Source of the DNA: a virus
Direction: 5' to 3' (one strand)
IMG/VR virus record: IMGVR_UViG_3300043548_000722
Coordinates: 43,651-107,650 of that record
Length of the DNA: 64,000 bases
In this document: positions 5,585 to 57,668 of the stretch, piece after piece
How the letters are laid out: each line of letters begins with the position of its first letter
Numbering within the stretch: the first letter of the stretch is position 1
The notes under the pieces: model-generated
Told to the model about the DNA's origin: nothing
Seen by the model: the letters and a program-made list of their open reading frames with translations, nothing else
Database searches by the model: none
Position numbers and translations under genes: made by a program

Positions 5585-5592
5585 GGTGAAGG

Positions 5593-14593: not shown

Positions 14594-14775
14594 ACTTCGA
14601 GTCTCCGGATGATCTCTTTGGCCTCGTCCACAGTAACACCGAAGTTGAACGCAATCACTTCGGGGTTGAGAGGTTTGCCGTCCGCAGACTGAATACCTCC
14701 TCTACGCGCTCCCTTGGCGCCGCCCTCAATCTTAAGGGAGTCAACGACTCTTGGCTGTTCTTTGTTCCTGATCAT
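14587..14775 (-). CDS. Small hypothetical protein (possible HTH)
   Basis: Overlaps both neighbours; PEVIAFNFGVTVDEAKEIIRRL. Confidence 0.55.
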   Translation of the reverse strand: MIRNKEQPRVVDSLKIEGGAKGARRGGIQSADGKPLNPEVIAFNFGVTVDEAKEIIRRLEVC

Positions 14776-27176: not shown

Positions 27177-27187
27177 GAGCGATCCTA

Positions 27188-27826
27188 CTATACTGAAAGA
27201 CCCGCGACAATCGCATTTCCGTCTTCTGCGACAATACGGAGCCTGATGTCCAGGGACAACGAAGTGCTGTCGAACGAAGAGCCGAGAAGCTCTATGTTTC
27301 TAACTCTCCGCGATGATGGGAGGTCCGCTCTGCGAGACTGAGCCCTCCGCAGCGCAGAGAGTGCGGCACGAACCTTATCCTCTATAAGTCCGACCTGTGA
27401 ACTTCGCTGTGGATCAGTCCCTAGAATAGATAACAGACCTCCACCGGCGTTGGGCGTAAAGATGTCAGATCCAGGACTCGTAAACAGGTACTTCAAAACA
27501 AACTGCACGATTTCATTAGAAGGATTTGACTGTGACGACGGAGTTAGGGACTCGAAACTAATTATGGACGCATCATAGTCAGCCTGAGAGATCTTAAGGA
27601 CGTTGAGCGTACGGATCGGGGAGCCAAGCTCCGACTCTGGGATGTCTGCAATAACATGTGAGTCGTTAAGAACGACATATACTGGGCTTCGAACGCCGTT
27701 GATGAGAACAGCGGAGATTCCCTGAAACCCGGTGCCCTTGATGTCTAGGGAAAACCCCCCATTGAAGAAGTCAAGGCCGACAACTCTTGCGACTTCTTGA
27801 TACTGAAGGAGCGGAAAATCCATCAC
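27188..27826 (-). CDS. gp25-like baseplate/sheath initiator with N-terminal IPT-like domain
   Basis: VQFVLKYLFTSPGSDIFTPNAGGGL...LDIRLRI fits the gpW/gp25 pattern; directly upstream of J-like gene. Confidence 0.7.
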   Translation of the reverse strand: MMDFPLLQYQEVARVVGLDFFNGGFSLDIKGTGFQGISAVLINGVRSPVYVVLNDSHVIADIPESELGSPIRTLNVLKISQADYDASIISFESLTPSSQSNPSNEIVQFVLKYLFTSPGSDIFTPNAGGGLLSILGTDPQRSSQVGLIEDKVRAALSALRRAQSRRADLPSSRRVRNIELLGSSFDSTSLSLDIRLRIVAEDGNAIVAGLSV

Positions 27827-28167
27827 AGAGCCTCTGCAAGCAGCGCAGACCGTAGAGCCTGTAATGCTCCAGTCTGAGAACCGTCGAAGGTGCCGAAAAG
27901 ACTGGACCGCAGGGCACGAATCTTTTGAATCTGCCCGAGTGTTGCTCGTGCCGGTATGGCCGCAGATCCAAAACCTACGGCTTCGGCGCTGTCCACTATC
28001 TCCTCAGCTTCAGAGTCGATATCTAAGATTCTATTGTCAATTTCGGTTAGAAACGTAGAAGTCTCTGAGGTATTAGGCCCAGAAAGCCCGGTTTCGACAA
28101 CTGAGGCTATAATTAGCTGGGAAACGTGGTAGCTCAGCCGCACTACGTCAAGCGAAGGTGTGGTCAT
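27823..28167 (-). CDS. Hypothetical protein, 114 aa
   Basis: ATGA-type overlaps in operon. Confidence 0.65.
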   Translation of the reverse strand: MTTPSLDVVRLSYHVSQLIIASVVETGLSGPNTSETSTFLTEIDNRILDIDSEAEEIVDSAEAVGFGSAAIPARATLGQIQKIRALRSSLFGTFDGSQTGALQALRSALLAEAL

Positions 28168-29516
28168 TCTGCACCTCTGGCGTACTGTAGTAACTCGGAA
28201 GTCTGCGCATCTAAATCAAACGCACGAACTGCGGACGTAAACACGGTCTCAGCAAATATCGCAAATCTTCCCCTGCGGAGTAACTCGGCTGCCTTATCAA
28301 ACCCCTCTCGGTCAAGGTCGAGAACAAGTCGACGTGACACCTCTGCCAGAGACGGGGCAACCTCAGTAGGAATGCTCAAAATAGTCTGTAGTAGGGTAGT
28401 CTCAGTAGGAACGGGGACCCCAAAGGCATTCAGGCATCTGGCCGTGTTCGTCGTTACCGTAGAAACCTGCGCTGCCGCTGCGGCAAGTCTCTGCATGAGA
28501 CGAGCAGCATCGCCTCGGGACGAGATAGACGCTGCCTCTTCTGGCGTTGGGATGTCTGCTCGCAGAAGTGCTTTTAGCGGGTATACCTCTTTAACAGCCT
28601 CTATCATTAGATTTTTGGCAGCTGATGTTATTGTTACCGGACCTTCAGGGGCCGCGTCCGACACAGTCACTCCGACTGAGCTAACGCCGGTAATCTCGGT
28701 CAAGAAATTTCCTACACGAAGAATATCGCCCACCTCCACTCGACAGAGCAGAGGATTGATTGTGAGCAGTACGGTCTGTCCTTGGCGAGAAGATTGAAAT
28801 TTACTAGGGAAAGCGGACGCCTCGCTTAATCTATGCGAGCTAGACGATGGAAATGAAAGAGCTCTTATGACTCCTCCAGATGCAACGATACCAGCCAGCG
28901 CGGCAGAGGGCTGAGTTTGCTGAGCCGCTCTTTTTAGGGAGAGCAGAGGGGCCACCGCCGCAACCGGCAGCAGCGTACTGTGCAGCTGACTGTCTCCAGA
29001 GGTAATGTCCGAGACGATTATGGCTACGTCCGCTAACCTCCGTCGTACATCGTGAAGAATCCGAGTCAGTCTGTTCCCCGCGTCATCGATCGATACCACT
29101 TTATTGCGGACCAAGGAACGGGTCATTTGGTTTGCGAGTTCTCCAGACTGGCGAAGAACTGCACGCAGCCCGTCCTCGGTAGGATTTCTGAGCGTCTGAT
29201 CTATCTGTCGTACAACTTCTGCTGAAGATGGGACTTGCACCTCTACGGGAGTCGTCTGCGAATCATAGGCTGCCTCCACTGCCCGACAGAGCAGCGCATG
29301 GAGATCACTTAGGGCTATACCAAGCGCGCGAGCTCTCTTTAGACGAAAGTACTGTAGGATCTCTGGCTGATGAATCAAGGTCTGAGCCACTCGGCTCCTG
29401 GCTTGGTCCCATCTCAGTTGCCGTTCCGTCTCCCCGGGCACAAGATCTCTTGGTGTCGCCCGAATCCTTAGCGCAGATCGAATCTGCGCTTGAGAAACGT
29501 TGAGTTTGTGTGCCAT
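28164..29516 (-). CDS. Hypothetical structural-module protein, 450 aa
   Basis: Start at MAHKLN (29516) overlapping upstream TGA. Confidence 0.7.
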   Translation of the reverse strand: MAHKLNVSQAQIRSALRIRATPRDLVPGETERQLRWDQARSRVAQTLIHQPEILQYFRLKRARALGIALSDLHALLCRAVEAAYDSQTTPVEVQVPSSAEVVRQIDQTLRNPTEDGLRAVLRQSGELANQMTRSLVRNKVVSIDDAGNRLTRILHDVRRRLADVAIIVSDITSGDSQLHSTLLPVAAVAPLLSLKRAAQQTQPSAALAGIVASGGVIRALSFPSSSSHRLSEASAFPSKFQSSRQGQTVLLTINPLLCRVEVGDILRVGNFLTEITGVSSVGVTVSDAAPEGPVTITSAAKNLMIEAVKEVYPLKALLRADIPTPEEAASISSRGDAARLMQRLAAAAAQVSTVTTNTARCLNAFGVPVPTETTLLQTILSIPTEVAPSLAEVSRRLVLDLDREGFDKAAELLRRGRFAIFAETVFTSAVRAFDLDAQTSELLQYARGAE

Positions 29517-30412
29517 CAGGTCACCGTCAGTGAGATGACGTTGAGCGATGTCGGTAGAGCGGGGAACCTGCGGGCGGGGGCGATGCTGGGTGCGAACTGA
29601 ATTTCGCACTCGCCTGGAGAGACGCCGACGACCGTGAGCACGTTGTCTTTCTGAGTAACGGTAGCCACGGTCGGGTCCGAACTCTTGGCGCTCACAAGGC
29701 AGACTGTGAGACGGTCTGAGTCGGGGTTCTTTGGGTATGGCCCAACAAGTCCACTTGAGAGCACGCTGTTGATCGTGATCTCAACGTCGTCTCCGGCCGC
29801 CAACGTCACGGCAGAAGATGGAACGTCTACATACGCGACGTACGGCCAGACGAGCTCAGTGAACCCAGTCGCCGGCAGGTCCGGGACCATGACATGAAAG
29901 ACCTGCTCTCCGTAGGACTCGACCACAACATCGTAGCGAGCACCGCGCAGCAAGTCGAACTCGACGTAGCCCTGGCCATCCGACGAGATGAGAACCTTGG
30001 CGTTGCCGGTCGCCATACCTCCGCTGATCCGCACGTAGTCCGTCAGCATGAGGTCAATCGTGACGTCAGGAAGTCGCTGCCCGGCCGCGCCGATCAGAAA
30101 CCCGCTGACTCTGCACAGATTTGCCTGAGTCGCAGGAGGGCGGGCATCTAAGTCCTGGCCCGCAACATCGAAGATGGAGTCCTCCTCGATGACGACGCTC
30201 AGCTTCTTTGCAAAGCTAAAGCCGGCCTTGAAGAAGCGCACCCAGTAGGTTTCTACCGGAAGCTCAAACACGACTTCGCCCGACGAGTCCGTATTCCCGC
30301 TGTCAATGAAGGTCGTTCCGTCCTCTGTGAAGACAAAGACCGTCACGCCAGGAACCTGAGTCTCTCGTGTCTCGTCAGAGGAGTCGTATGTGTAAAAGGT
30401 GACCGATGCCAT
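29516..30412 (-). CDS. Ig-like/transthyretin-like beta-sandwich virion protein
   Basis: VPGVTVFVF...GNTDSSGEVVFELPVETYWVRFFKAG; C-terminal SSDPTVATV...GVSPGE Ig-like motif. Confidence 0.7.
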   Translation of the reverse strand: MASVTFYTYDSSDETRETQVPGVTVFVFTEDGTTFIDSGNTDSSGEVVFELPVETYWVRFFKAGFSFAKKLSVVIEEDSIFDVAGQDLDARPPATQANLCRVSGFLIGAAGQRLPDVTIDLMLTDYVRISGGMATGNAKVLISSDGQGYVEFDLLRGARYDVVVESYGEQVFHVMVPDLPATGFTELVWPYVAYVDVPSSAVTLAAGDDVEITINSVLSSGLVGPYPKNPDSDRLTVCLVSAKSSDPTVATVTQKDNVLTVVGVSPGECEIQFAPSIAPARRFPALPTSLNVISLTVT

Positions 30413-31080
30413 CAGGACCTCCGGGGGAGAGGAATCAGCTCGAGTTCCTGAACTTCGAGAAGGTCGCTTCCTGTCGCGGCAAGGTCAAAGAGGTCAATGT
30501 TCGCCTGATTGGGAACTGTTACGTTTCGCACAAGTGCGGTGCCTGAGATGGTCAGCAGCCCCTGGATGCCCCGAACGACATTGAACGAGACTTGCCCTGA
30601 CGCATTTGAGACGGCAGTCACATCGGCAGCGACAAACCCGATGCCCATCTTTCTTGCCGACTCGATGCTTGGGCTGAAGCGGACGTAGACACCTTGAAGG
30701 TAGTCCCCTGCCGCGTCGATGAAGGTGCCCGTGATGAGGCACGTATTGGATGACCCTACATCCGGCGCATCGGGGACGTCTACGTTTGAGGCGTGGTCAA
30801 ACGCGAAAACAACGTCAGTGGCTGTGTACTCGACGGAGTTGACCGTGAAGGTCCACACCAAGTCGTACTGGCCCGAGGTCGCCGGAGTCCACGGCGCGGT
30901 GTAAACGCCCAGCTCGGTGTTCGTCGGATTTGTGATGGTCGCGACAGTTACTCCGGCCTTCTGAATGACCAGAGTCGGAGCACTGTCAGCGTTTACTCTG
31001 AAAGTAGATCCAGAACTAGAGGTGAACTGGATGGTCAGGATGGACGATGTGGCGACCCCGACTGCCTTAAAGCTGCTCAT
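30412..31080 (-). CDS. Ig-like virion protein
   Basis: GVYTAPWTPATSGQYDLVWTF; CLITGTFID resembles CRVSGFLIG in neighbour 29516-30412. Confidence 0.65.
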   Translation of the reverse strand: MSSFKAVGVATSSILTIQFTSSSGSTFRVNADSAPTLVIQKAGVTVATITNPTNTELGVYTAPWTPATSGQYDLVWTFTVNSVEYTATDVVFAFDHASNVDVPDAPDVGSSNTCLITGTFIDAAGDYLQGVYVRFSPSIESARKMGIGFVAADVTAVSNASGQVSFNVVRGIQGLLTISGTALVRNVTVPNQANIDLFDLAATGSDLLEVQELELIPLPRRS

Positions 31081-31081
31081 C

Positions 31082-31480
31082 CTAGCTCCTGACGGAGAAG
31101 GTCAGTACGCCGGTGAGGTCGCCAATCACTGCCGGAGCGATCAGTTCCACCCCGTCCTCAATGGGCTGCGACGTAACAGACGGGTTTGAAAGCTCAGTGG
31201 ATACCTCAAGGACTGCCTCGAGACGGGTGATGTCCGTCTTCACAAGAGTGCCCTCGGCACTCAGCGCGAGGTAGTGAATCACAAACCACCCCGGAGCGGT
31301 CGGGGTGAAGGTGTTGATGTAGACGCGCGTTTCTGTGGTGCTGAGCGAGGCAGACTCGGTAAGTGTGAGGTCCCAGCTCGTACCCGTGTCCATGCTGAAC
31401 ACTTTGGCCGTGACCGTAAGGCCTGTATACGGAGAGTAGAAGGCAATCCGGTAAGGAACGCCGACAGTCGCGGTACTCAT
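31082..31480 (-). CDS. Small beta-rich protein, 132 aa
   Basis: Start at MSTATV (31480), ATGA overlap; YINTFTPTAPGWFVIHY. Confidence 0.65.
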   Translation of the reverse strand: MSTATVGVPYRIAFYSPYTGLTVTAKVFSMDTGTSWDLTLTESASLSTTETRVYINTFTPTAPGWFVIHYLALSAEGTLVKTDITRLEAVLEVSTELSNPSVTSQPIEDGVELIAPAVIGDLTGVLTFSVRS

Positions 31481-45272: not shown

Positions 45273-46541
45273 ATGGAGTATATCACCCTGTACAATCGGG
45301 CGCGTTCCGGCGCCATTCGTATCTGGCAGGTTGCCCTGGAACAGGGCAAGGTCACCACGCAATTCGGGCAGAAGGACGGAGTCCTGCAAACCGTGGTCGA
45401 TTACGGCTATGAGAAGAATGTTGGCAAGGCCAACTTCATCTCAGCAGAGCGAGATGCGGAGAACCTCGTGGATCGACTGATCCGCGAGAAGAAGCGCGAA
45501 GGCTACCGCGAAGAGTTGGAAGAGGTCACCTTTGATCCCTTTGACCCTCCGGAGATGCTGAGCTTCTACAAGCCGCAGAACGCGCTCAACTCCACGATGG
45601 AGGCGATGATCGAGCGGAACGAGGCGTGGGCGGTGCGGAAATATGATGGCGAGATGATGGTGTTGATTCACCGCCCGGATGGCGAGGTCCGTATCCTGTC
45701 CCGCAAGATGCACCCGACACACCATCACGAGAACATCCCTTGGTCGGAGAGGTTTTCGCACATCGCGAACTCTCTGAAGAGGGACACGCCTCGCGGTACG
45801 GTTCTCCTGGGCGAGATGGTTGGCCCCGGGTGGAGCGATGATCGTTGGTTGGTGGCCCAGGTACTCAAGTCTCGAACGGCCCGCGCGATCGAGCTCCAGC
45901 GGGCGCACGGGCCGATGCGTTTCCGGGCCTGGGATGTGGCCTGGTGGGGAATGGAACAGCTTATCGGGAAGATTGAGTACCGACACAGGTACGACAACAT
46001 CGACGAGCTTACAGATGGCGACTACCTGCTGCCCGCAGAGGTGCTGGTGGAGGATGACTACACTGGCGTGGATGACCTGCGGCGCATCGCCGCAGAGAAC
46101 CGATGGGAGGGGTTCGTGATTGTGAATCCCTGCGATACCTACGGCGATCGCGGCTTCAACCTGCGGGGCAAGCCGGATCGTCCCTCGGGATGCTGCAAGC
46201 TCAAGCCATTCTTTGAAGATGATTTTGTTGCGATCTGGGACCCTGCGAAGAAGCAGGGCAAGTACGGTCGGGGCAAGTACACGGGCCAGTTCGGCGCGTG
46301 CTCCCTGTACCAGATCGACTCGAAAGGGAAGATGCGGTACATCTGCGAGTGTGGCAACGGCTTCACCGCCGAGTTCATCCGTGAAAACTCGGCGGCTCCG
46401 TGGCAGAAGGTCATTCAGGTCCGGTACGAGTCACGGACCTATGAGTCGGAAGATGACGAAACGAACGCGCTACAGTTTCCCCGCTTCATGATGGAGCGGA
46501 CGGACAAGAGCGCGGATGAGTGTGTGAATCCCCGGCTCTGA
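45273..46541 (+). CDS. ATP-dependent DNA ligase with WGR-like N-terminal domain
   Basis: Motif I RKYDG, LLGEM, motif IV WEGFVI, motif V KLKP, OB domain CGNGFT...LQFPRF...RTDK. Confidence 0.92.
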   Translation: MEYITLYNRARSGAIRIWQVALEQGKVTTQFGQKDGVLQTVVDYGYEKNVGKANFISAERDAENLVDRLIREKKREGYREELEEVTFDPFDPPEMLSFYKPQNALNSTMEAMIERNEAWAVRKYDGEMMVLIHRPDGEVRILSRKMHPTHHHENIPWSERFSHIANSLKRDTPRGTVLLGEMVGPGWSDDRWLVAQVLKSRTARAIELQRAHGPMRFRAWDVAWWGMEQLIGKIEYRHRYDNIDELTDGDYLLPAEVLVEDDYTGVDDLRRIAAENRWEGFVIVNPCDTYGDRGFNLRGKPDRPSGCCKLKPFFEDDFVAIWDPAKKQGKYGRGKYTGQFGACSLYQIDSKGKMRYICECGNGFTAEFIRENSAAPWQKVIQVRYESRTYESEDDETNALQFPRFMMERTDKSADECVNPRL

Positions 46542-47334: not shown

Positions 47335-47556
47335 ATGGACGAAATTCTTAAGAAGTCGGCTGCTATGCGTATGTTTTTCAACATCAACACCTTTCGATGG
47401 GAGTCCATGGATCCAGAGATCTCACGGGCCATCCAACAGGTGTACGCAGATAACCCTATTCTTACTCTGGGATCTGTTCCTTTCGCGGTTTTTGCGGAGT
47501 TAATCCGCGTAGTGCTCTGCTGCGATCCGCCCTCCGAACGCCCTCCAGAAGAGTAA
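47335..47556 (+). CDS. Hypothetical protein, 73 aa
   Basis: AGGAG RBS before ATG 47335; overlaps kinase 3' end convergently. Confidence 0.5.
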   Translation: MDEILKKSAAMRMFFNINTFRWESMDPEISRAIQQVYADNPILTLGSVPFAVFAELIRVVLCCDPPSERPPEE

Positions 47557-48472
47557 AGTCGCTTGGAGCAACGTTTTGTATTCCGTACAGTGTACGGAAC
47601 ATCTCCGATTGGGTGATTGGAGTAGTCAGTATCGCTTTGCGACGAAACGCGGAATCTTCCATAAGCCTTTGCATAAAGCCACTTTGACGCTGCATTAGGG
47701 TTTCTATGTCCGGGGCTGTACTCCCGACCGGCAATCCTACCCACCTCTGCACAAAGCGCGACCTCGGGCTGCTAGCAGCTAGCGTCTGTGCAGCGCGGTC
47801 GGGGGAAGATGGAATGAAGTCAATAATTTTGGGACCAGAGGCCGTCATAATCGTATTACCAGGATTGCCTACTACATCTCCAAGGGTCTTTTTTGCTCCC
47901 ATCCGGAAATTACTTGCCGGAAGATGCGCCACGGCCCGAGTAAAGTCAGTGCTCCCGGGGGCATTGAGCTGCTCTGGGGTCACATAGCTGGCGAAGTCCT
48001 TTTCGGGTCCCGAGACGAACTCTGTGTGGTAATACGGAGTGCCGCTGTCCGCCCGCCGAAGCTTCGGACTGTAGAGTGTGGCGAACGTAGGGTCTTTGGT
48101 CGCACGCGCTCTTCTGAGCATATTAAATTTTTCGGCGAGTACTCGTTGGTCGTAAAGTGGGCCCTTGGTATCAAAGGTCTTCATAACCGACAAGGGCACA
48201 GGGGAATCTGTGGAACCTACAACAAGGGCTGCGGGCCCTTCGGCCCCGCTTCCGAGTACCTTTATAATAGAGCCCATTCGGGTTTTTTTCAGGGAACCCT
48301 CGGCGTCTAATTTTTCTGCAAGCCGCGTTGCTCCGGAGATATCTCCTGCCTCCACAAGTGCCCGCAGGTCTTTTAGATATCGGCGCGCTGCAATTTTTGT
48401 CTGGCCTGCAGACTCTTCAGCCCACAAGGGATGAGTAAGTAGAATAGCCTCGTATGCGGCAACTTTATTCAT
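47462..48472 (-). CDS. Protein kinase-like fold protein with K-x-A leader
   Basis: Gly loop LGSGAEG, VMK lysine, hinge TEFVSG, catalytic GDVVGNPGN, KIIDF. Confidence 0.75.
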   Translation of the reverse strand: MNKVAAYEAILLTHPLWAEESAGQTKIAARRYLKDLRALVEAGDISGATRLAEKLDAEGSLKKTRMGSIIKVLGSGAEGPAALVVGSTDSPVPLSVMKTFDTKGPLYDQRVLAEKFNMLRRARATKDPTFATLYSPKLRRADSGTPYYHTEFVSGPEKDFASYVTPEQLNAPGSTDFTRAVAHLPASNFRMGAKKTLGDVVGNPGNTIMTASGPKIIDFIPSSPDRAAQTLAASSPRSRFVQRWVGLPVGSTAPDIETLMQRQSGFMQRLMEDSAFRRKAILTTPITQSEMFRTLYGIQNVAPSDFTLLEGVRRADRSRALRGLTPQKPRKEQIPE

Positions 48473-50984
48473 CTTGATCTCCAGTTTGAGGGATTGATGT
48501 TACACCGTCGTTAGTGTCTTGGCTAGGAAGCTCTACAGTCTTATTTTTATTGGCAGCTCGGCGCCTCAAAATCTCTGCGGCGAGAGGGACCCCTGCCGAA
48601 GGTATTGCACCCGCGGCATACGTACCATAGGCAGGTAGCAGAGTTTTGAGGCGCCTCCCACGGACTGCTGGAGCGGCAGCCATCATAGCCCGCGCGGTTG
48701 CGCGTGCCTCCTCAAGCAGCACAGGTGCCCACATTGACGTTGCCCCAGCGATGCCCAAGTTTCTTGCTTGAGCCCATCGTTTTTCAGGATCTTGCTCATT
48801 GGCCATAGTCGCTTTTGCTCCATAGCCAAACGCCCCTAAAGTAAGGCCCGTGCCAACCAGGCGGGCAGGTAGTATGGAACTCTGAAGTATCTTTTTCCCA
48901 ACTCCACCTGCTGCATGTCCAAGTTCGTGGGCAAGGACATCAGGATCTTTTATCCCCTCCATGAAGACTTTGTTGATAGTTGGGTTGTAGTGCGGCCCAC
49001 GTCCCTGCAACTGCGCGGCAATTAGATCTGCTATTTGTGCTCTTTCTGTGGGGGGACGACCCTCTACAATTTTACGAAGAAGATAATTATCAGTCATCAG
49101 TTTCTCAGCATCGGCTTTAGTTGGAGCCCCTTGAGATGCAGGTACAGGAGAGTTTTTAAACATTGTATCGAACTCATTTGGATCTCTGGGGCTATTTCTT
49201 AACTTGTCCACAACAGAACGACCTGCCGCATTCTGAAGTGTCTTACCGGCTACGGTCGCTGCTCCAAGGACTCCAAGGGATGTACCAAGAGCCCTTTTTT
49301 TGGACACGCCCTGTTTGTCTTCCGCGGACTCAGATGATGCTCGCTTCTCCCTATTTTTAGCTGACCCGTCTGCCGGCTCATTCTTCGGCCACAGCTCACG
49401 ACGCGCCCAGTAGTTTGCACTGAGCTTGTCGTTGGCAGTCAGACTCCCGTCTTTGCCGCGGATTCCGGCCGAACGCGTGAGGTAGTTCTTCTTTGCCGCG
49501 TCGGAGTAGTTGTGCTTGTAGCCCTTCTGCCCAAAGTGGATCAGCTTGACCTGGTCCCCTTTCTTGGCAAGAACCATCTTTTTCTTCTCGGGACGGTCGG
49601 AGTCAATCGGCTGGTTGTACCCAGGAAAGGTACGGCCGCGATACTCGATCTCAGCCTGCTTGATCACCTCCTCATCTTCCAGAGGCGCGTCGGCATTCCG
49701 CTGAAGAGCTATGGCTCGACGACGAAGTAGCTCAGCAGACAGTGGTAGTCCGGCTGAAGGTAGCGCAGAAATAGCATATGTTCCGAACGCTGGTGTAAGG
49801 GCGGCCAGTCTGCGTAAACGAGCTCCCTTGGGAGCCGCCAGGACTGCCCGTCCGCTAGCCCGGCCTTCCTCAAGAAGCGTTGGTACGTGCTGTAGTGCGG
49901 CCCCTACCGTTCCAAAATTTCTTGAGTGTTCAAACCTGCGCTCCTGTTCCTCTGGGGTTCGTCCCGCAGCACTGACCATTAGTGCGGCAGACCCAAACCG
50001 CATACCCGTGCCCACTGAAGGCACGAGACCTTTACTAAGTGCGTGCAATATTCTTTTCCCCCACGTACCCTCAGAGTGTCCCATTTCATGGGCCAAGAAG
50101 TCTGGGTTAACCGCACCCCCCGTAAGAATCATCTTAGGAGACTCGAGGTACTTGGGTGTGGTATCTTTGAAGTAGTCAGACAGTACCTGTGCGAGCTCAG
50201 GCAACTCCTCGACCCCGATGTCGAAATTGTCGAGCACGGTCGGGTCTCTTTTTAGAATCTCTAGAATCTCATCTGCGGACGGGTTCGCCATTAAGACGGG
50301 CACGCCTTTGGACTCAATGCTGGCACGTAACGAGTTAAATTCTCTGACCCTAGTTCTGTCGCGAAGCTGCCCCTCTATAATTGGAGTCAGCAGTCCCTTG
50401 TCAACGCCGAATGCGGTGGCTCCTAGTCCGGCTGTGGCCCCAACACCTGTCCCGAGAATTGTGCTCGCGGATACGTTATCCCCTGGATAATGTGACACGG
50501 CCGAGGCTGCTTTAGTTGCAGCTGCGTTTGCAATCCGAGCCTTCATGCCCGCGGACATACCGGGGTGGTCTCTCTTAAGAGCTTTATAGATCTCCTTGAC
50601 CTTTGCTGGCCGATCCTGCTCCAGAAAGGGCGGCATATCAGACGCCGATTTGGTTTGAGACTTTTGGTAATCTCTGAGGTCTTTATACTTTGACTTTACT
50701 TTGTTACCAGTTTCTTTGGCGGAGCTAGCTAAACTGCGAGCCGCGTCAACTCCCGCTCGAACAGCCAATCCTCCCGAAGCCAAGCCTCCGGCATAAAGAG
50801 CCCCTCGAAGGACCGGATTTTTCTTAGCAAAATCACTTCCCATTGGTAGATATTTTGTCATCAGTGCGCCAGAACCCGCGGCTCCCGCGATTCCAGTAAG
50901 GCTTTTAGTGTAATCTTCCTGTTTGTAGGAGGGGCCGACATCAACTTCCGCAGACTTGTAAAAAAGAGAAATCTCTCGGATCAT
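48465..50984 (-). CDS. Polyprotein-like protein: Gly-zipper module, small helical module, Zn peptidase, DUF5754-like module, second Zn peptidase
   Basis: LAHEMGH...LLEEGRAS...AFGTY and LAHELGH...LLEEARAT...AYGTY; IHFGQKGY...SANYWARRELW. Confidence 0.85.
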   Translation of the reverse strand: MIREISLFYKSAEVDVGPSYKQEDYTKSLTGIAGAAGSGALMTKYLPMGSDFAKKNPVLRGALYAGGLASGGLAVRAGVDAARSLASSAKETGNKVKSKYKDLRDYQKSQTKSASDMPPFLEQDRPAKVKEIYKALKRDHPGMSAGMKARIANAAATKAASAVSHYPGDNVSASTILGTGVGATAGLGATAFGVDKGLLTPIIEGQLRDRTRVREFNSLRASIESKGVPVLMANPSADEILEILKRDPTVLDNFDIGVEELPELAQVLSDYFKDTTPKYLESPKMILTGGAVNPDFLAHEMGHSEGTWGKRILHALSKGLVPSVGTGMRFGSAALMVSAAGRTPEEQERRFEHSRNFGTVGAALQHVPTLLEEGRASGRAVLAAPKGARLRRLAALTPAFGTYAISALPSAGLPLSAELLRRRAIALQRNADAPLEDEEVIKQAEIEYRGRTFPGYNQPIDSDRPEKKKMVLAKKGDQVKLIHFGQKGYKHNYSDAAKKNYLTRSAGIRGKDGSLTANDKLSANYWARRELWPKNEPADGSAKNREKRASSESAEDKQGVSKKRALGTSLGVLGAATVAGKTLQNAAGRSVVDKLRNSPRDPNEFDTMFKNSPVPASQGAPTKADAEKLMTDNYLLRKIVEGRPPTERAQIADLIAAQLQGRGPHYNPTINKVFMEGIKDPDVLAHELGHAAGGVGKKILQSSILPARLVGTGLTLGAFGYGAKATMANEQDPEKRWAQARNLGIAGATSMWAPVLLEEARATARAMMAAAPAVRGRRLKTLLPAYGTYAAGAIPSAGVPLAAEILRRRAANKNKTVELPSQDTNDGVTSIPQTGDQDE

Positions 50985-50987
50985 GGC

Positions 50988-52229
50988 TCATTTCCCCTTA
51001 CTAAGGCTTGTGTTTGCAGCAAGGCCGTGCGAGCTGTATTGCTCGCCTTGACGGGTGGCTTCGCGCTTCTGGCGCGCAGCCTTGGCGAGACGGTCCTTGC
51101 CCTCTTCAGTCTGGCGTAGTCTATCCGCTTTTTGCTTTGGAAGATATACCCCTCTTCCGCCTTCGCCTGGCTTGTCGCCACCTGTCCAGTTCCAGTCCTG
51201 CTTGGTCCACTTCTTCAAGGAGTTGTTAGACGCAGAGGGCTTGGCGCCGGAGTAACCCCCGCCTTTGTCCTTGTAGATTTTGGTCGCGAGTTGCATGGCG
51301 CGCGCAGAGTGCTTGCCGCCCATCTTGGCGCGCGCCTCGGCTTTGGCTTGCTCCCATTTCTGCGGGTCAGTCTTGGTAGCGGTAGCTGAGGCTGTCTTAC
51401 CTGTAAATGGAGAGTCTATCGGGCTTGGGAACCTCTTATTTGCTATATCCCTGGCGCAGTCACGGGTAAAATCGCATACTCGACCGTCTACCATTGACGA
51501 GCCAGGAGCAAGTGGTGGGTGTCCCATTTTTTTAAGTGAATCATTTACGAGTGGCTCTAGTTCTCCTTTTCTCCACATCCAACGGTCATCGAAGAGGAAG
51601 AGTGTCGGGGCTGCATGGCGAATTTCACTCTCCCTGCCACCTGTGGCCTCCCTGATGGCCTGTTGTACTTCTTCTGGAGACAGGTCGTGCTCTATGGCTT
51701 TAAGACCCATTTCGTAGCGTGTGTAGTCATCCATGTGTTTTTGAAGTCGTTGTTGTACAAACTGCGCCTTAACCTCTTGGGGGATAGCACTCGCAGACTG
51801 GATTGTACTAGGATTTAAATTGGGCATCTGATTTGGCATCTGATTCGGCAGGCCACGCTTAAGTGTCCGCAGGCCGAGTGCTCCAAGTCCGAGTGCTCCA
51901 AGTGCTCCAGCAGACCCCAGGAGAATGTTTCGTCTCCTGCGCTCGGCCGCGTCCCGTTCAGACTGCTCATTCTTTTGGGGATCTACCTTGGTGGCAGTTG
52001 CGGAAGCCTGCTTTTTAAGGAGCGAAACTTCGGCTTTGGACTCTCCATAGCTTCCAGGATACGCCGTGCCGAGCGCCTTCCCGATCCCATCATATGCAGA
52101 GTAGACCTTGTACTCGGCCCAGGAAGGGATCTCCAGACCAAGATCGATCTTCTCCTTGAGATGTTTCGCCTGCGCGGCGATTCTCTCAAGGGTCTTGCTC
52201 AGCATGTGTGAGTCGTCGTACTCGCTCAT
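50988..52229 (-). CDS. Three-module protein ending in a DUF5872-like domain
   Basis: HSARAMQLATKIYKDKGGGYSG...SLKKWTKQDW...YLPK; modules separated by KQA/KTA-SATATK. Confidence 0.8.
   Translation of the reverse strand: MSEYDDSHMLSKTLERIAAQAKHLKEKIDLGLEIPSWAEYKVYSAYDGIGKALGTAYPGSYGESKAEVSLLKKQASATATKVDPQKNEQSERDAAERRRRNILLGSAGALGALGLGALGLRTLKRGLPNQMPNQMPNLNPSTIQSASAIPQEVKAQFVQQRLQKHMDDYTRYEMGLKAIEHDLSPEEVQQAIREATGGRESEIRHAAPTLFLFDDRWMWRKGELEPLVNDSLKKMGHPPLAPGSSMVDGRVCDFTRDCARDIANKRFPSPIDSPFTGKTASATATKTDPQKWEQAKAEARAKMGGKHSARAMQLATKIYKDKGGGYSGAKPSASNNSLKKWTKQDWNWTGGDKPGEGGRGVYLPKQKADRLRQTEEGKDRLAKAARQKREATRQGEQYSSHGLAANTSLSKGK
51823..51909. repeat. Two short in-frame tandem repeats
   Basis: GGCATCTGATTY x2 (51823-51846; PNQM) and CCGAGTGCTCCAAGT x2 (51874-51903; GALGL). 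Confidence 0.85.
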
Positions 52230-52738
52230 TTGCGACCTTCCCAGTCGAGGGAGACCTCATCCTTGGTGATGGGGCCGCCGGAAGCCCAAGTATAGCAAGA
52301 TCGCGCCGAATGGCACTTGAAGTCGTGCATGTGGCAGTAGCCGAGATGGCCATCCTCTTGCACCATGCCAGGCATGCAGTCCTGCATTCGCGGAGAGATG
52401 TCGAACGCAACGCAGTTGCCGCACTTCGACTTCTTTGCAACTGCGGCAGTTGTGTTCCAGTGTTCGGCCAGGTGTTTCCAGTACCCCTCGTCGGACAGAT
52501 TGAGAGGCCCGTACTTGATGTGCTCTGCCTTGATCGCGCGGTTCCGGTTCTTGGTATTGACTTCCAAGCTGCGGGTTGCAAGCGGGCACGCCGCTGCCGT
52601 CTTACCGCCAGAAAGGGGATATCCGCAATTGGCACACTTCTCTGCACCCGCATGGTTCATGTGCCCGCACTTAGGGCATTTGATCTGAGCGGCCGAGAGC
52701 TTGACCATCTCGAGGAAGAAGCCAGTGAGGGGTCTCAT
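52226..52738 (-). CDS. Leader + zinc ribbon + Cys-rich domain protein, 170 aa
   Basis: CPKCG...CANCG; CGNCVAFD...GYCHMHDFKCHSARSCYTW. Confidence 0.85.
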   Translation of the reverse strand: MRPLTGFFLEMVKLSAAQIKCPKCGHMNHAGAEKCANCGYPLSGGKTAAACPLATRSLEVNTKNRNRAIKAEHIKYGPLNLSDEGYWKHLAEHWNTTAAVAKKSKCGNCVAFDISPRMQDCMPGMVQEDGHLGYCHMHDFKCHSARSCYTWASGGPITKDEVSLDWEGRK

Positions 52739-55700
52739 GCGGGATCCGTGAACTTGGTGCGATTGGTCTTTCGGCTGACGGCACGTAGGTTGCCGTGGCC
52801 GTTTCCTCCGCCCTTTGACAGCGGTGTCTTGTGATCGGCCTCACGCGGATCACCTTTCTTTAGCCCGAGCTTTCGGCGAGCCTGGTTGCGCAAACTGCGG
52901 TTCTCAACCTGTTCTGGCTTGGCGTGGTACTCAGCGTACTCTTTTTTGTAGTCCCTCTTTCGATCGCCGTAGGAGCTTATTTTAGTTTGTTCCGCGAATC
53001 TCCCAAGTATCGCATTGTGGCTTTTCGGGTCTCCAATAACCCCAACCTTCTTGTTGGTATTGGGGTTAAGGAAGTCCCTGGGCACCGTCAGGTCCCAGTG
53101 TTTTTCTCCATTCGGAGAAAATCCATTTGCGGCATAGGAGGCTGAAACCAGGTTACCGCAGATAAATTTATCCGCATCTTCTGGATTTTGCTTACGGCTA
53201 ATTAGGTTCTTCGCCATTTTCTCTGGGATCAGCAGGGAAGCGCCCTGTCCAGCCAAGAAGGCAAGACTGTCGTAGTCTCTGCCAACTCGACTCTCGGCAA
53301 AATTAGCCGCTCCCTCTCTAACTTTCTTTGAAGCTTTTGGGCGAACTACAATTGCTGATTGGATTCCATCAAGTGCTTCCTCTAAGTTTCTTTTTTGAAC
53401 TCCATCCTCGATACGTGCCTCAACTACTCGGTCCTTACCGACATAAATAGCAGAATGCGCGTGAGAACCCTGGAGTGCAGTCGAAATCCGTGTAAACACC
53501 GCACTGGGGGCGCTAAGAAGCGCAGGCTGGTTACTATGCTGCTTCGGGGTCATCAGGAGAATGTCTCCTTCTTTTAATTTAGATCTAATACGGGACACAC
53601 TGTCTGCCACCTCAGCAACCTTCAACCGCTCTCCCGGAGGACGCATTGAAGGGCCGAGGACTGTCTTTACGACGTGGCGATTTCCGACGTCTCCGACAAC
53701 AGCATAGCCACGACCCCGTTTAAGGGGGATGTGGTATGTCTGTCCTTTGCGGAGCTTCATGTTCCGCAGCTTTGCGCGGAGTGTGTTGACCTCGGGCTCT
53801 GCTCCAGGAGCACGCTCAGCGATGCGGTCTTCAACATGACCAGCTTCTTTCTTGGTCTCTATAAGACTCGCCCGCTGAAAGACCTCTCGCATCTGCCGCG
53901 CCAACTCAGTTTTCTCATCTGCGCGATCTTGGATCCACTCCTCGGTAGATTTACCAGGATCGAGATTTAGTAGCGACGAGATATTTCCTTGGGGAATTGT
54001 GGAATAGTACCTTTGAACGACTACCTTTCGTTCTTCAGGAGGAAGATGATGATGGCTCTGGTAACGCACCCCTCTGCCGATAACCTGGTCAATCTTTGAG
54101 TTGTTCCAGTGCGGCTCTAGAACTTGGACGAGCTTTGTACCCTTGAGGTCTAGTCCCTCGGTTCCGGAACTCGAGACCAGCAAAACTGGAGTTTTACCAG
54201 AGTTATAGTTTTCGACCAGCTGGGCTTTTTGCTTTGCAGTCAGGGCTCCCGTAAGGGTCTCAAATTTGATACCAGTTCTCTGGAGAGACTTTTCATAGGG
54301 ACGAAGTCCGGCCTCTACATAGTTGGAGTAGACGACCCCTCTGAAATTTGGGTCTGTCTTAGACATTGCACGAAGGCGGCTCACCGCCTCTTGGATCTTC
54401 GGAGTACTGAGGCGCTCCTCAATGTCCGTCATTTCTTTGACATATGGCCTCGGAGATAGCGACGCCTGTCTCCCTCCGGCAACAAATGCATTCAGGTCCT
54501 TTGCCTCCTGTTTAGAGGGAGGCAGGCCTGCCTTAATCTTCATTCTGACGTGAAGCGGAGCAGCGCCCATCACGGTTTCATAGACGGCGTGCTGAGTCTC
54601 CGACATTGGAACACGAATCTTCTCTTCCACCTGCACCGGGAAGTCTGATGCCGATGCCTCGTCGTGCAGATCAATGCGACCTGTGAGGGCATCTATAAGG
54701 GCCTTACGATTTTTTAAAGACCTTTTAATCCCCGGCTGTACGCCAAGTAGTCCCTGAAGCAGTCCCGGAGATACTTCCGTCTCTTGAATAAATTTGGCAT
54801 CGAAGCCAGAAGGATCTGCAGGAAGCACTGCCTTACCTGCTGCAATATTTGCCAAAGGAGCAATATCCGAGGGCTGGTTGTACAGGGCAGTACCTGTGAG
54901 TAGCAACCTCTTTTGCGCCTTCGCGGCATCGGCACGAAGCAGTGACGCAGCGAGAGTGCCTGAATTCCTGAGCCGATGCGCCTCATCGATTACCAGAAAC
55001 CTAGAGGTGTCAATCCCCTTTCCCTCCTTTGCGTCCCTGGTGGCCTTTTCGTAGGAACGAATGCGAGCCGTCACCTCCCCACGAACATGCTTCTTTAGTT
55101 CCTTCTCATAGTTTGGAGTTAACGATGCTGGAGTTACGACTTCAATTGGCAAGCCACTATTGACCGCCGCTGCAATTGAGGTCAGCGTTTTTCCTGCGCC
55201 TACGCGATGGGCAACAATGACTCCATCTGAATTTTCGATCTTCCGCAGCACTCTCTCCTGATGAGGCTTTAGAGCAGAGATGACCTCAGCTGCCTCCTTT
55301 TTCATCGCGTCGCTGGTGTAGACAACGCCAATGTCCTTGTAGAAAGAGTCTTTGGGTAGCGTCTTTTTTAGTTGCCGAAGTTTGCGCTTACCAAAGCGAT
55401 CTACCGCCTGCTGGTAACTGGCGTCGATCTTGTCGTACGCATAGCGAGGGACGGCAACAACAGTGGCTGGACGGCCCTTCACAGGATCAAGATCCTTCCA
55501 GTAGGCGCCCGGCACGTCCTTGTATTCATTAAACGAGGAGAGGTCCCCGATCTCCTCAAGCGGAACCATGTAGTCGATGTCGCTGGTCTTCTTGGGGATT
55601 GAGAGTCTTCCGCTCCCTACGATGGTCCATGTTCCATCGTGCGGCTTGCCATCGATCACAGGGTTGGGAAGGTTGTCCTGAAATCTCGCAGCAGCGGTCT

Positions 55701-56124
55701 TGCTCATCTCCCGGAACTGCTGGATGTGCTTACAATCCTGCGCCTCTCCAGGCTGCGCAACAGACTTCTTGTACCTCCAGTCATTACAGGTACAGCCAAG
55801 TCTCTCCGATCCGCGCAGCTTCGTGATCTGATACGACTTGCCGCCGTCTCCGGGAATGTCAGCGATCTTCTTCCCGGTCTTGAGACGGTTCATGGAGTCG
55901 GCGTACTGAAGTAGCTTGGGGTCCGTCATTGGATCCGCGCCAAGCTGCTTTACGAACGACTTTCTCGCGGTGTTGTCCGTGAAACGGTCCCAGTCCTTTT
56001 TCTCTGAGGACTGGAACTGCTCTACACGTTCTTGTGCCTTCTTCTTCTCGCGAGACTGAACTGCCGCAGTCGTTCCGGCTGCTCCCAGTCCTACAGCGGC
56101 AAGCGGGAGAAGCAACTTCGGCAT
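52735..56124 (-). CDS. Six-module polyvalent protein: SWIM, nucleotidyltransferase, SNF2-like helicase, RNase-like, permuted papain (C92-like), HNH
   Basis: CTC...CKH; VGS...DID; GAGKT/DEAH/TGT/QVIGRGVR; HVEDRIAER...VKTV; GDILL...HSAIYVG...FICGNLV; DHKTPLSKGG...NLRAV...N. Confidence 0.9.
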   Translation of the reverse strand: MPKLLLPLAAVGLGAAGTTAAVQSREKKKAQERVEQFQSSEKKDWDRFTDNTARKSFVKQLGADPMTDPKLLQYADSMNRLKTGKKIADIPGDGGKSYQITKLRGSERLGCTCNDWRYKKSVAQPGEAQDCKHIQQFREMSKTAAARFQDNLPNPVIDGKPHDGTWTIVGSGRLSIPKKTSDIDYMVPLEEIGDLSSFNEYKDVPGAYWKDLDPVKGRPATVVAVPRYAYDKIDASYQQAVDRFGKRKLRQLKKTLPKDSFYKDIGVVYTSDAMKKEAAEVISALKPHQERVLRKIENSDGVIVAHRVGAGKTLTSIAAAVNSGLPIEVVTPASLTPNYEKELKKHVRGEVTARIRSYEKATRDAKEGKGIDTSRFLVIDEAHRLRNSGTLAASLLRADAAKAQKRLLLTGTALYNQPSDIAPLANIAAGKAVLPADPSGFDAKFIQETEVSPGLLQGLLGVQPGIKRSLKNRKALIDALTGRIDLHDEASASDFPVQVEEKIRVPMSETQHAVYETVMGAAPLHVRMKIKAGLPPSKQEAKDLNAFVAGGRQASLSPRPYVKEMTDIEERLSTPKIQEAVSRLRAMSKTDPNFRGVVYSNYVEAGLRPYEKSLQRTGIKFETLTGALTAKQKAQLVENYNSGKTPVLLVSSSGTEGLDLKGTKLVQVLEPHWNNSKIDQVIGRGVRYQSHHHLPPEERKVVVQRYYSTIPQGNISSLLNLDPGKSTEEWIQDRADEKTELARQMREVFQRASLIETKKEAGHVEDRIAERAPGAEPEVNTLRAKLRNMKLRKGQTYHIPLKRGRGYAVVGDVGNRHVVKTVLGPSMRPPGERLKVAEVADSVSRIRSKLKEGDILLMTPKQHSNQPALLSAPSAVFTRISTALQGSHAHSAIYVGKDRVVEARIEDGVQKRNLEEALDGIQSAIVVRPKASKKVREGAANFAESRVGRDYDSLAFLAGQGASLLIPEKMAKNLISRKQNPEDADKFICGNLVSASYAANGFSPNGEKHWDLTVPRDFLNPNTNKKVGVIGDPKSHNAILGRFAEQTKISSYGDRKRDYKKEYAEYHAKPEQVENRSLRNQARRKLGLKKGDPREADHKTPLSKGGGNGHGNLRAVSRKTNRTKFTDPA

Positions 56125-56134
56125 CGGCGGATTC

Positions 56135-56779
56135 CTACGCGGTGATGAACGCTCGGAAACGAGACTCGAGAGATGACCCGGAGAGAATGTCCTTTAGGAT
56201 GTTCTGAAGGGGATAGATGGTCAGCCCCTTGTTTCTCCGTGCAGTCTCGGCATCGTAAGACCGGCCCATCATAACCGTCCGAGGATCAGTTGCGCTATAC
56301 TTCGCGTAGATGTCGGCGTTGCTGCCCAACATGCGCCACCACCACGCAAGTCTCTCCGCTGCCTGATCGATGGATGTGCGGTAGAAGATCGAGTCCCCGA
56401 TGTCTGTCAGCCGATGCGCGACCTGACACCTCGGGCAGACAATGATGCCTGTGTCCTGGGCAAGATCTCCCGAGATCAGATTGTTGCACCCAGTCTGAGT
56501 AGGTGCCTTCGAGAAGGCCATCTCCGCAGGGCTGATCTTCGGTGCGTCCTGGTTGCGACGGCAGATGAAGAGCATCTCATCTCCGCCTCCATGTAGGCGC
56601 TTCCCCGATTCCCAGAAGGAGAGGGAATACGCAACGGGCTTGTGGAGAGAACGCTCCGAACGGAACCAGATCTGGATCTTGTATTTCGCCTTCTTGGCCG
56701 CCTCCTCGGCTGCCTTGATGTTCTCGGCTTCAATCTTGGAGGCGAGCTCTACGCTCAGGGTCTGCATACTCATGGTCAT
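56135..56779 (-). CDS. Hypothetical Zn-binding protein, 214 aa
   Basis: WESGKRLHGGGDEMLFIC...GC...CPRC; GGAG RBS. Confidence 0.75.
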   Translation of the reverse strand: MTMSMQTLSVELASKIEAENIKAAEEAAKKAKYKIQIWFRSERSLHKPVAYSLSFWESGKRLHGGGDEMLFICRRNQDAPKISPAEMAFSKAPTQTGCNNLISGDLAQDTGIIVCPRCQVAHRLTDIGDSIFYRTSIDQAAERLAWWWRMLGSNADIYAKYSATDPRTVMMGRSYDAETARRNKGLTIYPLQNILKDILSGSSLESRFRAFITA

Positions 56780-57321
56780 TCTCCGCTTGCAACAGTGACG
56801 TACGCGCCCTTGCGCTTGTCGCCGAACTTCTTGGTGACGCCCTCACCGGGATTGTTCCGAGGCCCTCGAGTCGCAAACGGAAGACGAACGGTTCGAATGA
56901 TCCGGATACCGTCATCCGTCATGACCCTCCGCTCGCCCAGCAAGTCGGATGAGGCTGGGATCTCTGGCGCGTTCTCTTGTGCGCGCGCAGGTTTGGTCGC
57001 GACCGGAGCTGGCGGCACCGCGGCCTTCTTGTTCGGGTCGCAGAGGATTGGCCCAAGATCGGCGTAGGCTGTGTGTAGCATCCCGCCTACGTCCAAGCTC
57101 CAAAAGAAGGTGGGCCTACCTTCTTTGATGGCGTACTCTTTGCGGACACGGATGGCGTAGTCTTCCTCATCCTCGGCAAAGCGAAGAAGATCGATGAGTG
57201 CCAACTCCCATGCCGCAGAGTCCTTCACGCGGAAGAGGACCTGATGACTGGCGTTTGAGTCGTCCCGCTCTTCGTGAATCAGCTCGATATAGTTCGAGCG
57301 TTTAATGTAGGGTTTAAACAT
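56776..57321 (-). CDS. Hypothetical protein, 181 aa
   Basis: Start at MFKPYI via TAATG overlap. Confidence 0.7.
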   Translation of the reverse strand: MFKPYIKRSNYIELIHEERDDSNASHQVLFRVKDSAAWELALIDLLRFAEDEEDYAIRVRKEYAIKEGRPTFFWSLDVGGMLHTAYADLGPILCDPNKKAAVPPAPVATKPARAQENAPEIPASSDLLGERRVMTDDGIRIIRTVRLPFATRGPRNNPGEGVTKKFGDKRKGAYVTVASGE

Positions 57322-57668
57322 TACCATTCCTTCATGGCGCGGTCGATGAGCTGGTAGACCTGTCCGAGGATTGACGGCCCCTCGTCGTCTGATGCAGTCT
57401 TCACAGCAGGCATTTCCTCCCACTGCAAGTGCTTGCACGGCTCTCCTCCCGCAAGCTCGTCGAGAGACGTGCCCTCGGGCTCTCCGCCTTCTCGCGGATA
57501 TGCGCAACAGATGTTCTCTTGGCAGATTTCTGGCTGACAAGAGCCGTGACGGTCAGCCCCGATAAAGGAGAAGGTACACCCCGGAGGGATGAAATGATGG
57601 ACTTGCGGGTAGTCCCGACAGAACTGGGGTCTCGTCGGATAGATGCCACAGCGACCGACACAAGCCAT
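57321..57668 (-). CDS. Cys-rich YkgJ (CxxCxxCC)-like metal-binding protein, 115 aa
   Basis: GGAG RBS; CGIYPTRPQFCRDYP signature. Confidence 0.7.
   Translation of the reverse strand: MACVGRCGIYPTRPQFCRDYPQVHHFIPPGCTFSFIGADRHGSCQPEICQENICCAYPREGGEPEGTSLDELAGGEPCKHLQWEEMPAVKTASDDEGPSILGQVYQLIDRAMKEW

Follow-up and report, generated by a model that had tools for sequence, protein, structure and literature searches.

The head protease of phage T4, gp21, cuts after Glu at L/I-x-E, and its substrates are the capsid and core proteins together with the internal proteins IPI–III and Alt, which have capsid-targeting leaders. In African swine fever virus (ASFV), the polyproteins pp220 and pp62 are cut at GG-X by a SUMO-protease-like cysteine protease to give structural proteins of the core shell. 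Gp245 of phage SPN3US cuts after Glu at A-x-E, with 13 of 14 mapped cuts removing N-terminal propeptides, and packaged proteins in such systems are ejected into the host (PMC10052503). For pseudorabies virus assemblin, the predicted cuts follow Ala, at YLQA-T and VQA-S (PMC4498786), and polyvalent proteins have been proposed to be delivered with the DNA, their processing being predicted mainly by embedded zincins with no cleavage motif given (PMC5512222). Head proteases that cut at short repeated motifs and release packaged proteins within the head are already known, as are polyvalent proteins and their predicted processing. Here we analyse five adjacent genes at positions 47462–56124 of a 64,000-nucleotide window, the final 64 kb of a single 107,650-bp virus contig (positions 43,651 to 107,650 of IMG/VR record IMGVR_UViG_3300043548_000722). 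Our results suggest that these genes probably encode polyproteins that are cut apart by the capsid-maturation protease of the phage at K-x-A/S junctions. Two aspects appear, from the sequence, to be new: a Lys two residues before a small P1 residue, and a motif that stands between up to six unrelated enzyme modules and at which these modules are shuffled among relatives. In our searches of the literature, no phage head protease was described as having Lys-x-Ala specificity.

The five genes lie on the minus strand with ends that overlap or are a few bases apart, and encode proteins of 1129, 170, 413, 839 and 336 residues, referred to here as g1129, g170, g413, g839 and g336. Their coordinates are window positions; those of the head block are given as contig positions. 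The contig codes for a DNA polymerase, a UvsX-like recombinase, a ligase, tail-fibre and baseplate proteins and a large terminase, and thus belongs to a tailed phage. Megablast gave no DNA-level match for the five-gene block among deposited phages, and family searches (Pfam and PHROGs) name only some parts of the five proteins. For comparison we used related phage contigs (G001, G002, G003 and G007 among them), with 15 relatives whose head proteases are 61–88% identical. A preliminary description of the window had listed 14 K-x-A/S sites at apparent domain boundaries; all 14, as well as two in the kinase-like gene g336, are indeed in frame where it had placed them. Its caution that the motif also occurs inside domains was justified, as we count 17 further K-x-[AS] in the five proteins.

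As placement rather than count was at issue, module borders had to be defined without reference to the motif. For this we took tblastn breakpoints against the related contigs, at which orthologues gain, lose or swap modules, and obtained 16 breakpoint clusters; a breakpoint was counted when it lay within 6 residues of the strict motif K-x-[AS]-[ASEG]. A strict site was found at this distance from 9 of the 16 clusters, compared with a null mean of 1.28 (permutation P ≤ 1e-5), in line with the boundary enrichment that the preliminary description had anticipated. When 127 two-residue a.b patterns of comparable frequency were ranked by their matches at breakpoints, K.A came first, with 8 matches against 1.47 expected and 4 for the runner-up. 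A tally of junction alignments, an approach that cannot address the sites in the short leaders of g170, g839 and g336, placed 12 of the 16 sites at a module border visible in relatives.

The orthologues of g1129 illustrate this arrangement. The gene (52735–56124, minus strand) encodes a putative polyvalent protein of six modules, with K-x-A/S sites after residues 144, 278, 761, 837 and 1050 (KTA 55693–55701, KEA 55291–55299, KEA 53842–53850, KVA 53614–53622 and KIS 52975–52983). The orthologues in G001, G002 and G003 have 323, 479 and 959 residues, respectively, and differing module sets: G001 retains query residues 19–144, 758–836 and 1055–1126; G002 retains 19–278, 758–838 and 1056–1129; and G003 retains 22–145, 269–838, with a different insert between these two, and 1056–1125. 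Whole modules come and go in these orthologues exactly at K-x-A/S sites. The modules of g413 and g839 are likewise redistributed among open reading frames (ORFs) in relatives, and K-x-A or K-x-S recurs at the junctions there, independently of the upstream module.

The same motif marks the head proteins of this phage. K.AS is the most over-represented gapped tetrapeptide of the whole 107.6-kb genome (47 seen, 12.1 expected; for KTAS, 12 and 0.7). Minus-strand proteins of the head/virion block (contig 2.3–37 kb) account for most of the 47 sites, and g839 and g413 for five; the long proteins at contig 51600–88314, two of which have tail-fibre or baseplate PHROG matches, are at chance level, and the replication proteins nearly lack K.AS. 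Two scaffold-like proteins have ten sites each, spaced roughly 10–60 residues apart, and many proteins have one site 20–40 residues from the N terminus. In each of the 15 relatives, K.AS heads the motif ranking of the head block, and alignments of orthologues show K and A retained beside a variable middle residue and variable flanks. In the loci around the relatives' polyprotein genes K.AS shows no overall excess, and there it is the placement of the motif that is informative and not its count. A position matrix built from the head-block sites scored the junction sites above the other K-x-[AS] of the five proteins (P = 4e-6), and still did so (P = 0.0014) when the residue after Ala (P1') was dropped because including it would be circular.

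The 47 K.AS sites comprise 46 distinct 12-mers and use all synonymous codons, which indicates a signal in the protein rather than in the DNA; on these grounds we rejected DNA recombination or DNA-level regulation as the source of the motif. Coincidence is a further candidate: linkers rich in Lys, Ala and Ser could generate K-x-A by composition, or each module could have inherited it in a conserved end without any function. The motif count in the five proteins is near chance, as this would predict, and the ends of high-scoring segment pairs (HSPs), from which breakpoints derive, can be pulled towards conserved residues. However, chance of this kind does not explain the lead of K.A over the comparable breakpoint patterns, the persistence of K and A beside a variable x and upstream flank whichever module lies upstream, or the confinement of the proteome-wide K.AS excess to head-block proteins, and we consider it highly improbable.

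The preliminary description had noted that the protease itself lies outside the window. We found it 32 kb upstream of the window, at contig 9744–11639, as a 631-residue minus-strand product. It is part of a head block on one strand in which it lies downstream of the terminase gene (14491–16272), with the capsid-protein gene at 4393–5523. A weak PHROG match links the protein to head-maturation proteases, and tblastn aligns it with a 'capsid maturation protease' of a Gordonia phage, with gp19 of Bacillus phage G and with a structural protein of Salmonella phage Arash. Neither the protease nor the scaffold-like proteins had a usable match in Pfam, that weak protease match was the only one from PHROGs, and a protease profile found no match among PDB chains even at E ≤ 10. 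The family has 2,843 cluster representatives in a large protein library and no Pfam model. Predicting the structure from 8 close sequences gave a predicted local distance difference test (pLDDT) score of 33.7, compared with 85.9 for the N-terminal 300 residues with a 40-sequence alignment from a whole-library profile search. The best structural match of the latter model is T4 gp21 (5jbl; Z 9.4, root-mean-square deviation 2.9 Å over 132 residues), the next 34 are herpesvirus protease entries at Z 6–8.8, and unrelated folds score 5.1 or less. Foldseek alone gave no match at E ≤ 0.001, with herpesvirus proteases and gp21 weakly at the top of its list; a second aligner made the match clear. By this model, the protease has the T4 gp21/herpesvirus assemblin fold.

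Across the 40-sequence alignment, H138 and S194 are invariant, as are C204, C207, C218 and H220 of a Cys/His cluster inserted in the protease domain. The domain, at about residues 40–295, is bracketed by KTA-S at residues 37–40 and 293–296, both in low-confidence segments of the model; at the N-terminal site K and A are at least 90% conserved in this alignment, down to 35% identity, and the long C-terminal extension carries further conserved sites. Environmental homologues of the protease (P0074, P0077, P0088 and P0095, among others) have about 1000 residues and contain intein/Hint domains (PF14528, PF13403 and PF14890), so that inteins appear to have inserted in the protease gene. The major capsid protein (contig 4393–5523, minus strand; 376 residues, weak phrog_2522 match) has a single site, KTA at residues 23–25, which ends a 25-residue leader and aligns by eye with a site at residues 27–29 in the leader of gp226, the Arash capsid protein. 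A naive longest-ORF call masks the capsid gene with a 413-residue ORF on the opposite strand (4369–5610, plus strand). The preliminary description had looked to the prohead protease and to capsid and scaffold propeptides for corroboration, and this is what we see: the motif ends the capsid leader, repeats in the scaffold-like proteins and flanks the protease domain at both ends. We consider it very likely that K-x-A is the head-protease motif of this phage clade.

The motif could instead be an uncleaved linear signal in flexible linkers, used for docking or capsid targeting and bound by scaffold, portal or shell, with the proteins remaining intact. Its position in low-confidence model segments and near N termini is what a targeting signal might show, and the virion RNA polymerase of phage N4 and some plasmid polyvalent proteins are transferred uncut (PMC5512222). 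Nevertheless, the ten closely spaced sites of the scaffold-like proteins and the sites flanking the protease match the substrates of T4 gp21 and SPN3US gp245 and the herpesvirus release site; Ala before Ser is the cleavage pattern of herpesvirus assemblin, whose fold the enzyme here shares; and a docking motif need not sit at every module border. An uncleaved signal is therefore unlikely in our view.

In g1129, module 1 (residues 1–144, 55693–56124) has a hydrophobic N terminus and a CxC...CxH zinc-finger region that, from its sequence pattern, may be SWIM-like; it ends at KTA, and HSP ends in G001, G003 and G007 set its end at residues 140–145. Module 2 (145–278, 55291–55692, ending at KEA) is a possible minimal nucleotidyltransferase; it has no Pfam match when scanned alone at E ≤ 1, so this assignment follows from its GS...DxD motif. 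It is present in G002, absent from G001 and replaced in G003. Module 3 (279–761, 53842–55290), which also ends at KEA, is a predicted SNF2-type helicase (PF00176, E = 4.9e-17; PF00271, E = 3.3e-14; phrog_62 over residues 276–770) and is missing from the G001 and G002 orthologues. Module 4 (762–837, 53614–53841), a small conserved domain of GHVEDR type with no function assigned, ends at KVA and is kept in all relatives, where KTA, KES or KLA stands in front of it regardless of the module upstream. Module 5 (838–1050, 52975–53613, ending at KIS) is a predicted permuted papain-like C92 (YaeF/YiiX) peptidase or amidase, with 30.2 bits to PF05708 against a cut-off of 27 when scanned alone. Module 6 (1051–1129, 52738–52974) is a putative HNH-like nuclease, with a phrog_4590 match over residues 1055–1124 (E = 1.3e-12) and a weak PF01844 match; in relatives it is preceded by KLA, KQA or KYA. 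The module-by-module Pfam scan at E ≤ 1 named C92 and, weakly, HNH only, and the SWIM-like, nucleotidyltransferase-like and HExxH readings are sequence patterns.

The two genes that follow on the same strand are built in the same manner. In g170 (52226–52738), a leader of residues 1–15 (KLS 52694–52702) precedes a zinc ribbon of residues 16–48 (KTA 52595–52603; Pfam match at residues 19–42) and a Cys-rich core of residues 49–170; seven more distant homologues start at residues 45–50 of g170, which is the position of the second site. Three modules make up g413 (50988–52229): residues 1–75, 76–280 and 281–413, split by KQA-S (KQA 52005–52013) and KTA-S (KTA 51390–51398), with phrog_14910 spanning residues 333–400. 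Relatives retain residues 276/281–411 alone, or 1–66 together with 276–409, and their junctions are KEA, KES or KLS.

A further series is found in g839 (48465–50984, minus strand), which comprises a leader (residues 1–12), a glycine-rich hydrophobic module (13–114), a small module (115–160), a first HExxH module (161–444), a phrog_220-like domain (445–549) and a second HExxH module (550–839), separated at KSA 50949–50957, KSA 50643–50651, KAA 50505–50513, KQA 49653–49661 and KRA 49338–49346. Residues 443–544 match phrog_220, 'minor head protein and DNA pilot' (E = 7.5e-32); this part matches a region annotated as 'putative portal protein' in Aphanizomenon phage CL131, has no MuF match and is preceded by KEA or KTA in relatives. 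The two HExxH modules (48468–49337 and 49653–50504) are paralogues (35% identity, E = 5e-34), each followed by hydrophobic, glycine-rich segments, and match no Pfam family. In G002 both are missing, and the module of residues 115–160 is joined directly to that starting at 445 through KEA-E. In G001 (8080–9564 of locus L033), the C-terminal module of g413 and the phrog_220-like module of g839 share a single ORF of 494 residues, in contrast to two genes here, which suggests that gene borders and K-x-A junctions are interchangeable in evolution. GxxxG-rich, glycine-zipper-like hydrophobic segments recur after K-x-A sites, at 50643–50948, 51390–52004 and 56037–56124 on the minus strand of the window and in many scaffold-like and head-block proteins; these may be membrane-active or self-associating.

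The last gene of the block, g336 (47462–48472, minus strand), has a 28-residue leader with KVA 48458–48466 and KIA 48389–48397, followed by a putative protein-kinase-like body (residues 29–336). The protein has no Pfam match; its language-model feature matches are OspG, RIO1/ABC1 and Kinase-PolyVal, and 10 of 10 structure rows are protein kinases with a template modelling (TM) score of about 0.5. Leaders ending in K-x-A/S are thus found in g839 (12 residues), g170 (15) and g336 (28), and g413 has no site before residue 73. Three virion-block proteins have leaders of the form MDK[IL]AAYQ..HPLW, which that of g336 resembles.

These modules offer another source of processing, in which peptidases inside the polyproteins, either the two zinc-peptidase-like HExxH modules of g839 or the C92 module of g1129, cut the junctions and the head protease is uninvolved. 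Iyer et al. 2017 predict that embedded zincin-like metallopeptidases process polyvalent proteins (PMC5512222), and the presence of two HExxH modules in g839 and one C92 module in g1129 would fit this. Nonetheless, the HExxH modules have no homologue in five related contigs with K-x-A junctions, including one with a completeness rating of 100%; because they are absent where the junction motif is retained, an embedded zinc peptidase is unlikely to be the general processing enzyme. The C92 module is missing from the g1129 orthologues of G001, G002 and G003, and an accessory peptidase would leave unexplained why the same motif occurs in the capsid leader, the scaffold-like proteins and the head protease. 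Processing from within the polyproteins without the head protease is, on this evidence, very unlikely.

A cultured relative is available in Salmonella phage Arash, a 180-kb orphan myovirus (PMC10585845). Three consecutive genes of our phage, including that of the protease, match Arash gp220–gp222 in order, gp222 being the protease homologue with a K-x-A that ends at residue 32, and the capsid-protein gene is downstream in both phages; the Arash paper makes no mention of a protease (PMC10585845). The Arash head block is rich in the motif (EK.A, 14 against 1.9 expected; K.AS, 12 against 1.9), unlike the first 50 kb of its genome (2 against 4.1). Adjoining the head genes, Arash gp217 is a stand-alone helicase of 472 residues that is 41% identical to the helicase module of g1129. 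Residues 6–464 of gp217 align with residues 285–745 of g1129, which extrapolates to about 280–753 at the ends of gp217; by this alignment, it nearly fills the span between the two KEA sites (279–761). Gp217 was detected in virions by mass spectrometry (PMC10585845).

Taken together, the claim of the preliminary description that the five genes are polyproteins with head-protease motifs at their junctions is well supported by sequence and comparison. Under the mechanism that we favour, Lys-x-Ala followed by Ser, Ala, Gly or Glu would be the recognition motif of the capsid-maturation protease of the clade, and cleavage would probably follow the Ala, or the Ser that sometimes replaces it. The enzyme would be the assemblin/T4-gp21-fold serine protease at contig 9744–11639, itself flanked by KTA-S. 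The five genes would give rise to polyproteins of about 17 modules, among them a SNF2 helicase, an HNH nuclease, a C92 peptidase, two zinc-peptidase-like modules, a kinase-like module, zinc fingers and small domains. Precursors with short leaders would enter the procapsid, where the protease would cut them at the junctions while trimming the capsid protein and chopping the scaffold, and the freed modules would then remain in the head as cargo and pass into the host with the DNA. The link to the virion comes from the resemblance of the g336 leader to those of three virion-block proteins, from the 'minor head protein' PHROG domain of g839 and from the detection of gp217 in Arash virions. We judge it probable that the five gene products are cut at their junctions; that the freed modules are injected effectors is a more tentative proposal, for which the case is nearly balanced.

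Several observations weigh against this mechanism. The strict motif occurs 19 times in the five proteins, compared with 14 expected from shuffles, which is no overall enrichment, and the canonical K-x-A-S is seen at only 5 of the 16 sites; in the rest, the Ala is followed by Ala, Glu or Gly or is itself replaced by Ser. The preliminary description had stated that every boundary carries K-x-A/S. This is slightly too strong, as one orthologous helicase junction in G003 and the distant homologues of the g170 core lack K-x-A. In the virion block, a 2116-residue RNA polymerase-like protein has 8 sites against 7.2 expected, so that a protein cannot be called a substrate simply because it contains the motif. 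On the contig the five genes stand apart from the head block, and none of their products showed a fusion to MuF or portal. Finally, the Arash virion list runs to 116 proteins, ribonucleotide reductases included (PMC10585845), and gp217 has no K-x-A leader of its own, which makes its detection a weak hint of packaging.

If the mechanism is correct, tailed phages would load several enzymes into the capsid by a polyprotein strategy that is otherwise characteristic of RNA viruses and certain DNA viruses of eukaryotes, and a sequence rule would predict packaged and injected proteins across a large, mostly uncultured clade. A natural handle for loading cargo into capsids would then be available for phage engineering. 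The processing and delivery of polyvalent proteins has been an open prediction since 2017, and this locus offers a concrete, testable answer; Arash, which is cultured, shares the head-block motif and already has virion mass-spectrometry data. More speculatively, the K-x-A junction might serve as a plug-in delivery code, whereby any in-frame domain placed between two sites of a head-targeted precursor would be packaged, freed and injected, so that the early arsenal would evolve by shuffling of cassettes at junctions and the packaged proteome could be read from sequence; we rate this generalization as possible but doubtful.

Some neighbouring features deserve mention. An ATP-dependent DNA ligase gene (45273–46541, plus strand) separates the five-gene block and the two small genes downstream of it from a long minus-strand block that includes the tail-fibre and baseplate genes. 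Upstream of the five genes, an ORF of 254 codons (56776–57540, minus strand) probably starts at the internal Met74, because in two relatives residues 74–253 are conserved and similarity to residues 1–63 is in another frame or behind stop codons. The 2116-residue protein of the virion block, encoded by a single ORF (contig 24866–31216, minus strand), matches several RNA polymerase beta-subunit PHROGs along its length and has the appearance of an RNA polymerase of multisubunit type with its subunits fused. The beta and beta' subunits of RNA polymerase rank with the most abundant proteins of the Arash virion (PMC10585845).

Among known systems, ASFV provides a precedent of a double-stranded DNA virus in which a protease encoded by the virus releases several virion proteins from one precursor by cutting it at a short motif that recurs along it. 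Here the junction motif is K-x-A in place of GG-X, the candidate enzyme has the assemblin fold and not that of a SUMO protease, and the modules are shuffled enzymes, so the resemblance is functional only. The polyvalent proteins of Iyer et al. 2017 are similar in joining unrelated conflict-type domains (SNF2, HNH, papain-like, zincin-like and kinase-like) in one polypeptide and in the high variability of domain architecture among relatives. By contrast, the junction motif here also occurs in head proteins, which points to the capsid protease; relatives can do without the zincin modules, and no MuF domain was detected.

The closest parallels are with the head proteases. Like herpesvirus assemblin (UL26/UL80), the enzyme here has the same predicted fold and a long C-terminal extension, with a site right after the catalytic domain that resembles the release site and with Ala before Ser/Thr; it differs in being a phage enzyme with an inserted Cys/His cluster, in that the main determinant appears to be Lys two residues before the Ala, and in substrates that would include enzyme polyproteins. 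T4 gp21 has the fold common to the protease here (Z 9.4), and gp21, phiKZ gp175 and SPN3US gp245 share with this system a three-residue motif that occurs many times in scaffold or core proteins, ends the leaders of head proteins and serves, or here would serve, self-cleavage of the protease. As in the internal proteins of T4 type, short N-terminal leaders ending in the head-protease motif are found in g839, g170 and g336. Relative to T4 and SPN3US, the specificity would be for Lys-x-Ala with an apparently small P1 residue instead of Glu, and, whereas SPN3US gp245 acts mainly at the ends of propeptides, the motif here stands between up to six unrelated enzyme modules in a single polypeptide.

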